A DNA stretch of 64,000 bases from Eledone cirrhosa (lineage: Eukaryota). The position numbers and the translations under genes were made by a program. The stretch is from the NCBI GenBank assembly GCA_964016885.1, contig OZ024765.1, positions 9,672,001 to 9,736,000 on the forward strand. Reading direction: 5' to 3'. A model generated the notes under the pieces. It was not told where the DNA came from. It did not search any database and saw only the letters and a list, made by a program, of their open reading frames with translations. Positions 30,274 to 39,500 of the stretch are shown here, piece by piece; within the stretch, counting starts at the first letter, position 1; every line of letters begins with the position of its first letter.

Positions 30274-30561
30274 ATGATGGAATCCAAGCAGCGCAGACAC
30301 ACCAAACACTCAAACAGTGACCAGAAGACCATTCCGAGTTCAACAAATGACAAGAAGACCAAACATGGCAACAAGAACAAGAAAAAAAAATCCATGACAC
30401 CTCCTCCATCTCAGTCCACCAGCCGCCCCAGTGGGATCGAACATTTTGTGACCTTTCTATGGTGTGTAACTGGTGTCCTAGTGGCCCTCGTTGCTGGTTA
30501 CATACATGGCAGGTACATGTCTACCTTGCATGACAACTACCTCTGGTTTTCACAGATTTCG
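30274..30561 (+). CDS. DPY19L3: DPY19L3 alternative first coding exon 1a (96 aa, ends ...[16 protein letters not shown])
   Basis: Basic cytosolic tail + TM1 + LHDNxLWFS; phase-0 donor gtaggt. Confidence 0.82.
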
Positions 30562-33500
30562 GTAGGTACTGCCTTCTTCTGCTTGTGTTAATGGTTCTTT
30601 TCATCTTTTTATCATCATCATCATCATCATCGTTTAATGTTTAATACAAGGGTCAGCTGAAAAGTTCATGGATTGACCAAGATACTCTCATGGAATGACC
30701 AAATGAGGTTTATTTTTCAACATACATATATATATATATATATATATATATATAATATATATATATATATATATATATATATATATACACAAGGATGGGC
30801 TGAAAAGTTCATAGATTGATCAAGATACTCTCATGGAATGACCAAATGAGGTTTATTTTTCAACATATATATATATATATATATATATATATACACACAA
30901 GGGTGGGCTGAAAAGTTCATAGATTGACCAAGATACTCTCATGGAATGACTAAATGAGGTTTATTTTTCAACATACACATATATATATATATACACAAGG
31001 GTGGGCTGAAAAGTTCATAGATTGATCAAGATACTCTCATGGAATGACCAAATGAGGTTTATTTTTCAACATACATATATATATATATATATATACACAC
31101 ACAAGGGTGGGCTGAAAAGTTCATAGATTGATCAAGATACTCTCATGGAATGACCAAATGAGGTTTATTTTTCAACATATATATATATATATATATATAT
31201 ATATAAAAACGTATATATAACATATATATGTATATATAAATATATGTATATATATATATATATATAAACATATATATAACATATATATGTATATATATAT
31301 AAATATATAAACATATATATATATATATATATCATCATCATCATCGTCGTCATTTAACGTCTATCTTCCACACTAGCATGGGTTTAGACGGGATGCCCTT
31401 CCTAACACCAACCATGTTTGCATATATATATATATACAGATCCTGAACACTATAGATCTTGCTTGCAGTCTGACCTGGACACAATGCAACAGTGGATCTC
31501 AAACTGGCAACTCAAGCTAGCTGTGGACAAGTGCACCACCATGCATTTTGGGAGTAAAAACCCAGCGTCCACATACTCCCTCCACAGCACTAATATCAAG
31601 AAGTCTTCCTGTGAACGTGACCTGGGCATTACGGTCAGCAGCGATTTGCGTTGGACGAGGCACGTCTCTAAAATTGTCAAGAGGGCCGAGGGTGTCTTAG
31701 CATCACTCAGCAAGACCTTTGTCAGCCGCTCTCCAGATATCTATTTAAGGCTGTATACAGCTATGGTGCGACCACACTTAGAATTTGCATCACCAGTCTG
31801 GAACCCCTATCTTGCTCAGGACATTGACCGCCTGGAAACTGTTCAGAGACGTGCAACCAAGCGAATACCCTCCATCAGGCATCTACCATACTCTGAGCGC
31901 CTTGCTTCCCTGGGCATGGATTCATTGAAGCTCCGACGCCTGGCAACTGACTTGGTAAACACCCACAAAATTGTTAACCATGTTGCCAACAACAACCCTG
32001 AGTGCCTTTTCGATTTCCATGTGTCTAACACACGTGGACATGCCCACAAAGTAAGAAAACAGCACAGTTCCCATGACTTTCGGAAACATTTTTTCACGCT
32101 CAGAGTTGCTGAAGCATGGAACAAACTACCTGCATCAGTTGTTAGCTGTCGAGACACTGCATCCTTTAAGGCCTCCATGCTTCCCGAGATCCGCCAACAC
32201 TACAGCTAACACATGCAAACATGTACTTCCCTGGCATTTGTGTATTATTCTATGTACTATATTGACGAGTTGTAGTGCATCTGAGCACTTTACACAATAA
32301 TTTCATTATTATTATTATTATTATTATAAACATATATATATATATATATAAATAAAAAAAAAAACAAAAGAAAAATACAAGATGTCCTACATGGGTGAAA
32401 ATATAAGGAAACAACACATCGCCCGTTCAATTCTCAGACCGGGCGATGTGTTGTTTCCTTGAGCAAGACACTTTATTTCACATTACTCCAGTTTACTCAG
32501 CTGTAGAAATGAGATGATAGGGACTGGGGTCCATATCATTCCACTGTAAAGTGGTCGTGTAGGTGCCACGGCAAACAAGCACCCAGCACTCACTGTAAAT
32601 GAGGTTGGTGTTAGGAAGGGCATCCAGCTGTAGAAATCAAGCCAGAATCAGTTCCCGTCCCACCCTTGCAAGCAGGGAAAAAGCGGATGTAAAATGAAAT
32701 GAAATGATATATATATATAAAGCCCGTCCAAACCCATGCAAGTGTGGAAGATGGACGTTAAACAATGATGATGATGATGATGATGATAAAATAAACATAT
32801 GAAACAATCAAGGGGATAATTTGTAAAGAGTGTAAAAACACATAGCTACGTAGGTAACTAATTAAAGTTTAACGAGAACTTCTAATATGGATACCTTTTA
32901 AAAATGATTAATCTCCTTCGTATATATTTCATTAAATAAAGAAATATATTTCACCATTAATTGGTAAATCACAGTAGTCAAATCCTGGATCATCAGCGAA
33001 GGAAAAGATTTAGCTGTCTGTGTTTACACAGCAAATGTAAATCTGTGAATGACTAGAAGCACGTGTTGCATTTAAAAAAAAATAAAATACACACATGATA
33101 CCAACTTCATCCCAGTGGCGTGAATAGGATTATCGACAGCTAGAAATAGCAGCCGAGTCCTTTCAACTGAGTAAGCTCGACAATTAAGGAGCCGTATATA
33201 TAACCAAAATTAAATTAAGGATGTCATGTCTGAGAGACATATACACAAGGGTCAGCTGAAAAGTTTCATGGAATGACCAAATGAGGTATATTTCTTCAAT
33301 ATAGTCCTTGGAAAGAAATAATGCAGTTATTAATAAGAGTTGATTAAATTAATGCATACAAGATTTCACAGCTTTAGCATCACACCTTCATAGTCAGCCT
33401 ATGAGTGTACTAGGTACATTTTATCACGGCACCGGTGTTACTTCTTTACAGAGTGTACAGGGTACATTTTATCATGGCACCAGTGTTACCTCTTTACAGA

Positions 33501-36500: not shown

Positions 36501-39500
36501 ATACATCCACACACACACACATCCTCACACACATACATCCACACACGTGTACATCCACTCACACACATACATCCTCACACACACATACATCCTCACACAC
36601 ACACATCCTCACACACACATACATGCTCACACGCACATACATCCTCACACACACATACATCCTCACACACACATACATCCTCACACACACACACATCCTC
36701 ACACACACATACATCCACACACACACACATCCACATACACACACATCCACACACATCCTCACACACACACATCCTCACACACAAACATCCTCACACACAA
36801 ACATCCTCACACACACATACATCCACACCACACACACATACATCTTCACACACATACATCCTCACACACACATACATCCTCACACACACACATCCTCACA
36901 CACACATACATCCTCACACACACACACATCCACACACTCAAACATCCACACACATCCTCACACACATACATCCTCACACACATACATACTCACACACACA
37001 TACATCCTCACACACACATACATCTTCACACACACACATACACAAACACACACACACATCCTCACACACACACATCCTCACACACAAACATCCTCACACA
37101 CATACATCCTCACACATACATCCACACACACATACATCCACACACACACACACATCCTCACACACACACATCCTCACACACACATACATCCTCACACACA
37201 CATACATCCTCACACACACATACATCCTCACACACACATACATCCTCACACACACATACATCCTCACACACACACACATCCTCACACACACACATCCTCA
37301 CACACATACATCCACACACACATACATCCTCACACACGTGTACATCCACTCACACGCATACATCCGCACACAGCACACAGACACAGGCACACACAAGGAG
37401 ACATACGCAGGCCCCCACCTTCCGCGATGGCCGAGCCGAACCAACGCCATAAGAAGAAACTCACTGGGAACCCAAAGAAGGGGAAGAGCCGACCCACAAA
37501 ACCCTTGAAACCCAGTGCAGAGGCCCTAGCTGGGCGCACGTGCACATGGGACCCTGTCTTGTTGGTAGCCAATGCTGCACTTGGTTTCTGCATCTGCTGC
37601 ATCTGCGGCTCCATACACGCCTGGTACATGTTGCAACTGCACGATAACAACCTCTGGTTCTCCAACATTAAGGTGAGGCAGTGTTGTTGTTGCTGTTGTT
37701 GTTGTTGTTTGTGTGAGGTGGTGGTGGGGGTGTGTGTGTGTGTGTGTGTGTGTATGGTGGTAGGTGTGTGTGTGGTGGTGGTGGTGGTGTGTGTGTGTGT
37801 ATGGTGGTAGGTGTGTGTGTAGTGGTGGTGGTGGTGGTATGTGTGTGTGTAGGGAAAAAGCGGACGTAAAATGAAATGATGATGATGATATATATATATA
37901 TATATATATATATCTTTACTTAGTATATATATCTTGTTGCTGTTATATATGGCATATATATATATATATATATCTTTATTTAGTATATATATCTTGTTGC
38001 TGTTATATATGGTATATTTATATATATATATATATATATATATATATATATATATATATCTTTACTTAGTATATATATCTTGTTGCTGTTATATATGGTA
38101 TATATATATATATATATATATATATATCTTTACTTAGTATATATATCTTGTTGCTGTTATATATGGCATATATATATATATATATATATATCTTTACTTA
38201 GTATATATATCTTGTTGCTGTTATATATGGCATATATATATATATATATATATCTCTTTACTTAGTATATATATCTTGTTGCTGTTATATATGGCATATA
38301 TATATATATATATCTTTACTTAGTATATATATCTTGTTGCTGTTATATATGGTATATTTATATATATATATATATATATATATATATATATATATCTTTA
38401 CTTAGTATATATATCTTGTTGCTGTTATATATGGTATATATATATATATATATATATATATATATATATATCTTTACTTAGTATATATATCTTGTTGCTG
38501 TTATATATGGTATATATATATATATATATATATATGCAAAAGTTTTATTTAAGATTGTTGGGTTACAACGAGTTATTTATAAAACAGCTTATGTATTGTA
38601 TTTTGTCTGAGGAAGGCATACCATATTTTTAATATGATATCCCAGAAATATATATAACGAAATAAATATGGTTTTATAAATATAGTTTCCATTTGTTTAA
38701 TATCGTATATATATATATATATATATATATATATATATATATCTTGTTGCTGTTATATATGGTATATATATATATATATATATATATATATATATCTTGT
38801 TGCTGTTATATATGGTATATATATATATATATCTTTACTTAGTATATATATCTTGTTGCTGTTATAAATGTTGTTGTAAATCTTTTACAGGAGGTAGAGA
38901 GAGAGATATCATTCCGAACAGAGTCGGGCTTGTACTATTCCTATTATAAACAGATCGTGAAAGCTCCATCCATATTGGAAGGTGAGTAGTGTGTTATTTG
39001 AGGTTGATTTGACTGCTATTGCTATGTAGAGGCCCTGTCATTCATATCACTAATCATCTAGAAGTCTATGTTAGGTGTATGTGTGTGTATATGTATATAT
39101 CTATCTATATATGTATATATAGGTATATATATATATATATTTCAGGATGTCGGTGAGCATGTCCAGCTAACCTCAGTCTCCTCTGTGTCACTTTTGAGCT
39201 GACTTTTGGGATGCTCCCATACAGCTCTGAGTTTTTCATCCTCAGTGTATACTGATTAATGTTCAGAGCCATCCTCAGCATTCTCGTGTAGCACCCATCC
39301 ACCATCTGAGTGAGTTTCTTGGTCAGTGTCCAAGAAACCGACCAGAGTTGACATTGCATTCAGTGCTCCTTTGGGAGCCCCTACATGGGCACACTAGAAG
39401 AGGAAGACCAAGGTTAACGTATGTTGATGCCCTAAGGACAGACACTGGTCTGTTGGAGACGCAGGACATGGCAGCGATAATGAGGGACAGAGACCGCTGG

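Follow-up and report, generated by a model that had tools for sequence, protein, structure and literature searches.

Paralogous first coding exons placed in tandem upstream of shared constant exons are known from the variable-first-exon clusters UGT1, GCNT2 and PCDH, which the available text of PMC1885805 describes as vertebrate-specific. UGT1 and GCNT2 are glycosyltransferase genes, as is DPY19L3. In tandem exon duplication-derived substitutions, as presented in the accessible parts of PMC9741552 and PMC8373072, an ancient swap of homologous exons tunes one short stretch of a protein whose remainder is unchanged. For the C-mannosyltransferases themselves, diversity is attributed to whole-gene paralogs in the sections seen of the review PMC12990085, and the topology of DPY19L3 is covered by PMC6801728, likewise consulted in part. 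The passages at hand on Caenorhabditis elegans DPY-19 (structures 7ZLG, 7ZLH and 7ZLI; PMC10154233) contain no isoform in which the first transmembrane segment (TM1) is swapped, and human DPY19L3 isoform 2, according to the portion consulted of PMC10972723, is inactive and lacks most of the C-terminal lumenal domain, which is not a TM1 swap. Here we describe the DPY19L3 gene in a 64,000-nucleotide stretch of the Eledone cirrhosa genome (GCA_964016885.1, contig OZ024765.1, positions 9,672,001 to 9,736,000 of the forward strand; hereafter the window, in whose own numbering all positions are given). At a probability of roughly 0.68, we read it as one gene whose first coding exon was duplicated long ago, into 1a and 1b, and which yields two forms through alternative promoters, with the same predicted WxxC chemistry and a different tail and TM1.

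The two exons are readily recognised on the plus strand. Exon 1a (30266..30561, alpha type) has a short 5′ leader, an ATG at 30274 followed by a second one at 30277, and 96 codons for a basic cytosolic tail, TM1 and a 12-residue segment; it ends at a phase-0 donor, GTAGGT, after position 30561. The coding part of exon 1b (37427..37672, beta type) starts with its own ATG at 37427, and its 82 codons specify a basic tail and TM1 with a 19-residue segment before the phase-0 donor GTGAGG, which follows position 37672. Both exons are open, end at donors in homologous positions and match the frame of exon 2 at 38891. They are clearly homologous (BLASTP E = 1e-10, 15/29 identical), with 36.5% identity over 74 aligned residues and 55/90 identical nucleotides over the last 30 codons. 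A hidden Markov model of the N-terminus, made from 72 segments from outside the window and run against 3445 stop-to-stop open reading frames (ORFs) from the window plus two loci, matched just 1a and 1b (E = 4e-18 each; next best 0.18) and gave no third first-exon copy in the window; tblastn revealed no second exon 2 between 1a and 1b. With exon 1b alone as the query, no protein was among the 44 candidates, and four weak matches on contig C13 were discarded as a tandem repeat, not exons.

Both first exons precede a common body. The window contains one complete, intact DPY19L3 gene on the plus strand, whose exons 2–17 (n = 16, 38891..61986) form an open body of 629 residues that is 82% identical to that of Octopus sinensis DPY19L3. 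Exon 2 (38891..38981) carries the RTE motif, with a Glu codon at 38921-38923 that aligns with the catalytic Glu71 of C. elegans DPY-19, and exons 3–17 (40242..61986) run to a TAA stop at 61984-61986. The window exons matched the Pfam domain Dpy19 (PF10034) above the cut-off. Aligned to 7ZLG, the spliced body holds RTE, Rx6LRE, WQF, LRMKY and HPHYE, the equivalents of Glu71, Arg211, Trp262/Phe264, Arg471 and Tyr578. Judged by these sequence features, the gene is a DPY19 C-mannosyltransferase (GT98) of the DPY19L3 type. In sequencing run X4, contig 31 (2331 nt) carries exons 3 and 4 directly joined and free of mismatches, and the gene is therefore spliced in the organism concerned. Some 400 nt of this contig fall upstream of exon 2 and might, by elimination, correspond to 1a, which we do not count as evidence. 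We rejected the possibility that 1a is part of another gene in tandem, since the window contains no second body and the one other DPY19 locus found in the genome lies 8 Mb away. The intron behind the first exons appears to be old: most genomic read-through ORFs of other animals end right after the motif WFxxIx, usually into a Val codon, as a GT donor predicts. Five genomic-looking animal contigs (L015 and L018–L021) differ in that the first-exon motif continues into an 11-residue segment, i.e., without the otherwise conserved intron.

Gene models of other animals show the same two N-terminal types. In O. sinensis, the RefSeq protein XP_036370347.1 (X1) is of the 1a type and XP_036370350.1 (X3) of the 1b type, on identical 629-residue bodies. 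Exon 1a is 64% identical to X1 and exon 1b 49% identical to X3, as compared with 29% and 35% for the cross pairs. This orthologous pairing supports an old duplication. Thus, an earlier note on this DNA, which had described 1a and 1b as each having an ATG, a basic tail, TM1 and a phase-0 donor to exon 2, and had proposed an old duplication with selection on both copies and two isoforms, holds in these respects. Among 21 protein clusters, picked for having several members and including two large ones represented by 15 of 76 and 15 of 22 members, ten contained two paralogous N-termini, namely those of O. sinensis, Ruditapes, Mya, an oyster (Crassostrea), Lineus, Patiria, Anneissia, Amphiura and Carcharodon and one led by Mercenaria. 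Each of the 11 isoform pairs in the gene models uses one of the two exons per transcript, while two Carcharodon models differ in having both types in tandem within a single model. The bodies are identical in 10/11 pairs; the exception is Mizuhopecten, where the two types occur in separate models and the pair has the first 94 residues in common. Both exons are also present in the metagenome locus L026, which is animal genomic DNA, as an acceptor-led alpha exon (770-927) and a beta exon with its own ATG (2950-3210). The order is that of the window, with beta 2 kb downstream of alpha. No second first exon was found in the other 19 of the 20 metagenome loci.

Several findings weigh against two functional forms maintained in this way. 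The isoforms of the relatives are automatic gene models, and neither a start site nor one of the junctions 30561->38891 and 37672->38891 was seen in the sequencing runs of this species. The 1b type was not found in two decapodiform clusters with 10 members, nor was a second type found in the clusters examined from gastropods, amphioxus, skates and Montipora. Altogether, 11 of the 21 clusters displayed a single type (O. bimaculoides, two decapodiform and three bivalve clusters, Haliotis, Biomphalaria, Branchiostoma, skates and Montipora). The O. bimaculoides cluster is of the 1b type, the skate clusters have the upstream type only, and each bony-vertebrate protein seen has one motif, so that the duplication appears to be absent from the latter. 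RefSeq models are usually backed by RNA-seq.

One could also suppose that exon 1b is a relic or an assembly artefact in E. cirrhosa and that just 1a is used. No RNA data set was listed for the 1b stretch, and a 0.43 share of words in run X4 is not taken as evidence. Positions 37360-37690 had no match from any of the four sequencing runs, possibly a filter effect, and 1b is less well conserved towards O. sinensis than either 1a or the body. The ATG, motif and donor of 1b are nevertheless intact and its frame is open, which substitution at 15–35% would preserve in only 24–7% of random trials of a simulation that did not count indels. The 1b type is, moreover, the one used in the O. bimaculoides model and in one of the O. 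sinensis models. We therefore regard a defunct exon 1b as highly improbable.

To assess how the two exons could be selected, we scored splice acceptors with a matrix derived from the 16 introns of the gene itself, whose true sites score between -1.5 and 14.9 in a leave-one-out test. With 1.8, the AG before 30266 is inside this range, and the O. sinensis X1 and O. vulgaris proteins reach upstream past 30266, implying an exon start there. Judging from these features, 1a is probably internal, with a further exon spliced to it from upstream; a leader exon in that region was looked for and not located. Variable upstream extensions are found in the alpha-type proteins of Lineus (X1–X4), Anneissia (X1), O. 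sinensis (X1) and two bivalve models, as expected if the alpha exon is internal. Another AG, at 30143, scores 13.0 and was initially taken as the acceptor of 1a. It was dropped once it proved to lie at the left edge of a dispersed repeat (30143..30250, plus strand), which has 39 other copies of 86–97% identity among the matches listed (403 candidates); this AG may or may not serve as an acceptor.

The situation at exon 1b is clearly different. Directly upstream lies a CA-rich minisatellite (36111..37377, plus strand) without a pyrimidine tract followed by a good AG. The candidate acceptor acgcag (37405..37410, plus strand; AG at 37409-37410), which the earlier note had placed before 1b, scores -15.6, below the median of -6.9 for all AGs in the window and far below the leave-one-out minimum of the 16 real acceptors, and is not credible. 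Within the 1.5 kb before the ATG, the highest AG score is 3.5, at a distance of 1.4 kb. In L026, the alpha acceptor scores 9.6, and every AG in the 400 nt leading up to the beta ATG stays at or below 1.0. From the lack of a usable acceptor we infer an internal promoter for 1b; CpG content marked no promoter. According to this sequence evidence, 1b is more likely a first exon transcribed from an internal promoter than one of two mutually exclusive exons.

True mutually exclusive splicing, as claimed in the earlier note, would require one promoter, a shared leader and either 1a or 1b as an internal cassette, with double inclusion killed by a premature stop. The two exons are indeed homologous and arranged in tandem, their donors agree in phase and both reach the shared junction in one frame, and splicing from 1a to the AG at 37409-37410 leads to a TAA at 37450-37452 that is in frame with 1a and off-frame for 1b. 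What is missing is a working acceptor on both exons, since 1b has none near its ATG and the beta exon of L026 resembles it in this. With acgcag so weak, the frameshift proposed to keep the exons apart loses its basis. Some lineages speak for the cassette model. In the Carcharodon carcharias models P0095/P0161, the upstream exon is connected in frame to the downstream one and the protein has two TM1 segments, either through an error of annotation or as a genuine form that includes both exons. One and the same beta protein is encoded by several transcripts in Anneissia (four), Patiria and Mya. The shark and Anneissia models indicate that the beta exon can be internal in some lineages and count against alternative promoters as a general rule, as does the fact that the argument from the missing acceptor is carried by a matrix of just 16 introns. 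Overall, we consider mutually exclusive splicing unlikely for this locus.

In the promoter-based arrangement that we prefer, a distal promoter would deliver a leader exon that is spliced to 1a and from there to exon 2, skipping the acceptor-less 1b, while a second promoter inside the 1a–1b intron would start a transcript at 1b itself. The swap would then replace the disordered tail together with TM1 and the first helix on the lumenal side, stopping ten residues short of the catalytic Glu. Its most likely role would be separate control by tissue or stage, combined with partner binding or positioning in the endoplasmic reticulum (ER) that depends on the tail or TM1, rather than the choice of sequon.

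To evaluate what the swap means for the enzyme, we considered the predicted structure of the O. sinensis 1b form, which has a predicted local distance difference test (pLDDT) score of 90. Residues 1–34 are disordered, and residues 35–76 form one long helix. The model has the GT-C fold of C. elegans DPY-19 (TM-score 0.82) and the same catalytic residues, and matches 7ZLI with E = 6e-34. The consulted passages of PMC10154233 name Glu71, Arg211, Trp262, Phe264, Tyr395, Phe401, Arg471, Lys473, Leu474, Pro576 and Tyr578 of DPY-19 and treat the Leu474 position as the key to WxxW versus WxxC recognition. All catalytic and sequon residues named there lie downstream of the exon junction, i.e., in the shared exons. 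The junction itself is ten residues before the Glu aligned with Glu71. At the Leu474 position, the window gene has a Tyr (LRMKY, in the exon at 53502-53653, plus strand, which contains the Arg471 equivalent and this L3-type Tyr) as opposed to MRLKL in C. elegans DPY-19, the WxxC type being assigned to the Tyr. Therefore, both forms are predicted to be WxxC enzymes.

These data bear on the idea that each form has an acceptor specificity of its own, for instance for WxxC versus WxxW or for different thrombospondin-repeat contexts, with the swapped lumenal helix shaping the active site. The swap reaches close to the catalytic Glu and includes the start of EL1, as such a role would demand. Yet the lumenal motif LH[DE]NxxWF[ST]xI is nearly identical in both forms, and the sequon- and donor-binding residues named in the passages of PMC10154233, including the Tyr at the Leu474 position, are encoded by shared exons. 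A switch between WxxW and WxxC, the isoform-specific preference entertained in the earlier note, is unlikely on these grounds, and a difference in acceptor specificity of any kind seems very unlikely to us.

The differences between the forms are concentrated in the tail and TM1. In six bivalves, the beta tails are 57% identical and the alpha tails 30%, and the beta tails keep an RNG-F/Y motif, which suggests that the conserved bivalve beta tail could be a binding or sorting signal. The window 1b is without this motif, a point that weighs against the reading preferred here. In TM1 of 1b, the Cys-rich sequence FCICCIC is present, at 37586-37606, as had been noted earlier. The cluster as such turned out to be octopod-specific; one of its Cys residues is conserved in the beta exons of bivalves, a nemertean and L026. 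This residue (codon 37595..37597, plus strand) lies 26 residues before the exon junction on a G-x3-X-x3-G face of TM1, and its place is taken in 1a by an Ala (codon 30484-30486). Two conserved Gly positions with a spacing of four flank it, an arrangement that suggests a face used for packing more than a cluster with reactive Cys. Echinoderm tails (P0055/P0176, P0060/P0177 and P0063/P0179) show a contrast of their own, the alpha tails being strongly acidic (20–30 Asp/Glu) and the beta tails Asn-Gly-rich with 2–4 acidic residues.

The age of the duplication was examined with trees and with individual characters. In the main tree (72 rows, 46 columns), cephalopod 1a sequences, including rows of the squid/cuttlefish type, form a clade (support 100/95), as do octopod 1b (99/85), bivalve beta including Solemya (97/90) and echinoderm alpha sequences (92/81). 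These within-phylum clades indicate that each pair is old inside its own phylum, and the duplication predates the octopod–decapodiform split. A character bearing on the deeper relationships is the Cys at position -26. Among beta exons, it is present in 3/3 from octopods, 8/8 from bivalves and those of Lineus and L026; it occurs in 0/5 cephalopod alpha, 0/14 bivalve alpha and 0/11 gastropod or chiton segments; in cnidarians and deuterostomes, the position is held by small residues, mostly Ala or Gly. Furthermore, the best of 32 alpha/beta labellings of six lineages fits the gene order in 3/3 known cases at all four lengths (p = 0.022, 0.032, 0.099 and 0.026, respectively, against a column-swap null). 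Octopod 1b and bivalve beta sequences were joined at 83/86 in one tree.

An alternative that we take seriously, while giving it less than even odds, is that there are two functional isoforms that arose by independent duplications in cephalopods, bivalves, nemerteans, echinoderms and sharks, their likenesses being convergent. This alternative bears on the origin alone and could hold together with the promoter mechanism. Much of the tree evidence points in this direction and away from a single origin: the large tree groups the segments by phylum, and the two Lineus forms are sisters at 92/92 in one tree. Approximately unbiased (AU) tests, which are low in power here, rejected no grouping, single-origin or independent (p = 0.05–0.42), and thereby left cephalopod-only, bivalve-only and echinoderm-only clades standing (p = 0.23–0.33). 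The characters are not free of conflict either, as the single annotated form of Owenia also has the Cys at -26. When column -26 was dropped, the lophotrochozoan labelling was kept at 3/4 lengths and the cephalopod labelling flipped at 1/4. Duplications of this kind also recur, as L026 carries a fresh partial duplication of its alpha exon. There, at 770-1047, the alpha-exon end (half of TM1, the motif and the donor) is tandemly duplicated in one open frame, a recent event that shares its ORF with P0222.

The shared Cys, the same exon order in 3/3 cases and the concordant labelling stand against independent duplications, and a beta clade of lophotrochozoans costs just 2.3 log-likelihood units. 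On sequence characters, the evidence leans towards a shared origin, which trees of 46 columns cannot settle. One lophotrochozoan origin of the 1a/1b duplication appears to us somewhat probable, and the duplication is probably at least as old as the early lophotrochozoans, the 1b type having been lost or left unannotated in gastropods. One bilaterian origin is doubtful. Similarly tentative is a wider scenario, in which the bilaterian ancestor would have had the two-exon switch of DPY19L3, with molluscs, nemerteans, echinoderms and some sharks keeping it and bony vertebrates and gastropods retaining one form; the beta tail and the TM1 Cys would then mark a partner or compartment that regulates C-mannosylation.

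Compared with the described systems, the DPY19L3 pair is a variable-first-exon cluster in layout, with tandem paralogous first coding exons and common constant exons, but is not filed as one. It differs from UGT1, GCNT2 and PCDH, as far as the text at hand of PMC1885805 goes, in having two copies, one of them internal, and no birth-and-death expansion; its variable exons neither form an expanded array nor encode the substrate-recognition site, the catalytic and sequon residues being encoded by the constant part. It also occurs in invertebrates. Unlike the exon substitutions in the consulted parts of PMC9741552 and PMC8373072, the swap is N-terminal and probably promoter-driven. The RefSeq isoforms of O. 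sinensis, Ruditapes, Mercenaria, Mya, Crassostrea, Lineus, Patiria, Anneissia and Amphiura, with the same two N-terminal types on one identical body, are the closest match but differ in being automatic annotations, for which we found no paper on paralogy, age or spread. A literature search returned no description of N-terminal or first-exon DPY19L3 isoforms in any invertebrate, although supplements with splicing catalogues could list the event. The two-isoform design is thus real and conserved, latent in automatic annotations and apparently undescribed in the literature. There is good support for the existence of the pair and for its age; the promoter-based mechanism, an origin in one event and a difference in function between the forms are inferred.

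C-mannosylation controls how thrombospondin-repeat proteins and cytokine receptors fold, and the enzyme diversity known so far comes from whole-gene paralogs. A tail and TM1 swap kept across phyla would point to a selectable role of a GT-C region to which the passages seen of the DPY-19 structure paper assign none. It would provide a natural enzyme pair for studying the placement and regulation of C-mannosyltransferases in the ER, as well as a test case for single origin versus repeated duplication of an exon.

The genome search revealed at least one further DPY19 locus, the one mentioned above at a distance of 8 Mb. This second gene (G000:C26:1399878-1418624, minus strand) is of the FENDKHFSH type, like DPY-19/DPY19L1 by resemblance to 7ZLG. 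The L3 profile detected no twin exon within 20 kb there, and the TM1 exon of this gene was not located. About 10 kb upstream of exon 1a, the minus strand of the window has a signal-peptide-like first coding exon at 20279-20354, with 25 codons plus one base and a phase-1 GT donor. It may belong to a divergent neighbour gene, of which no further exon was recognised. Within DPY19L3 itself, the acceptor of exon 9 is repeated by a 122-bp tandem duplication (~48650-48850), in which a decoy with an identical context opens at 48719 and the real exon starts at 48841.

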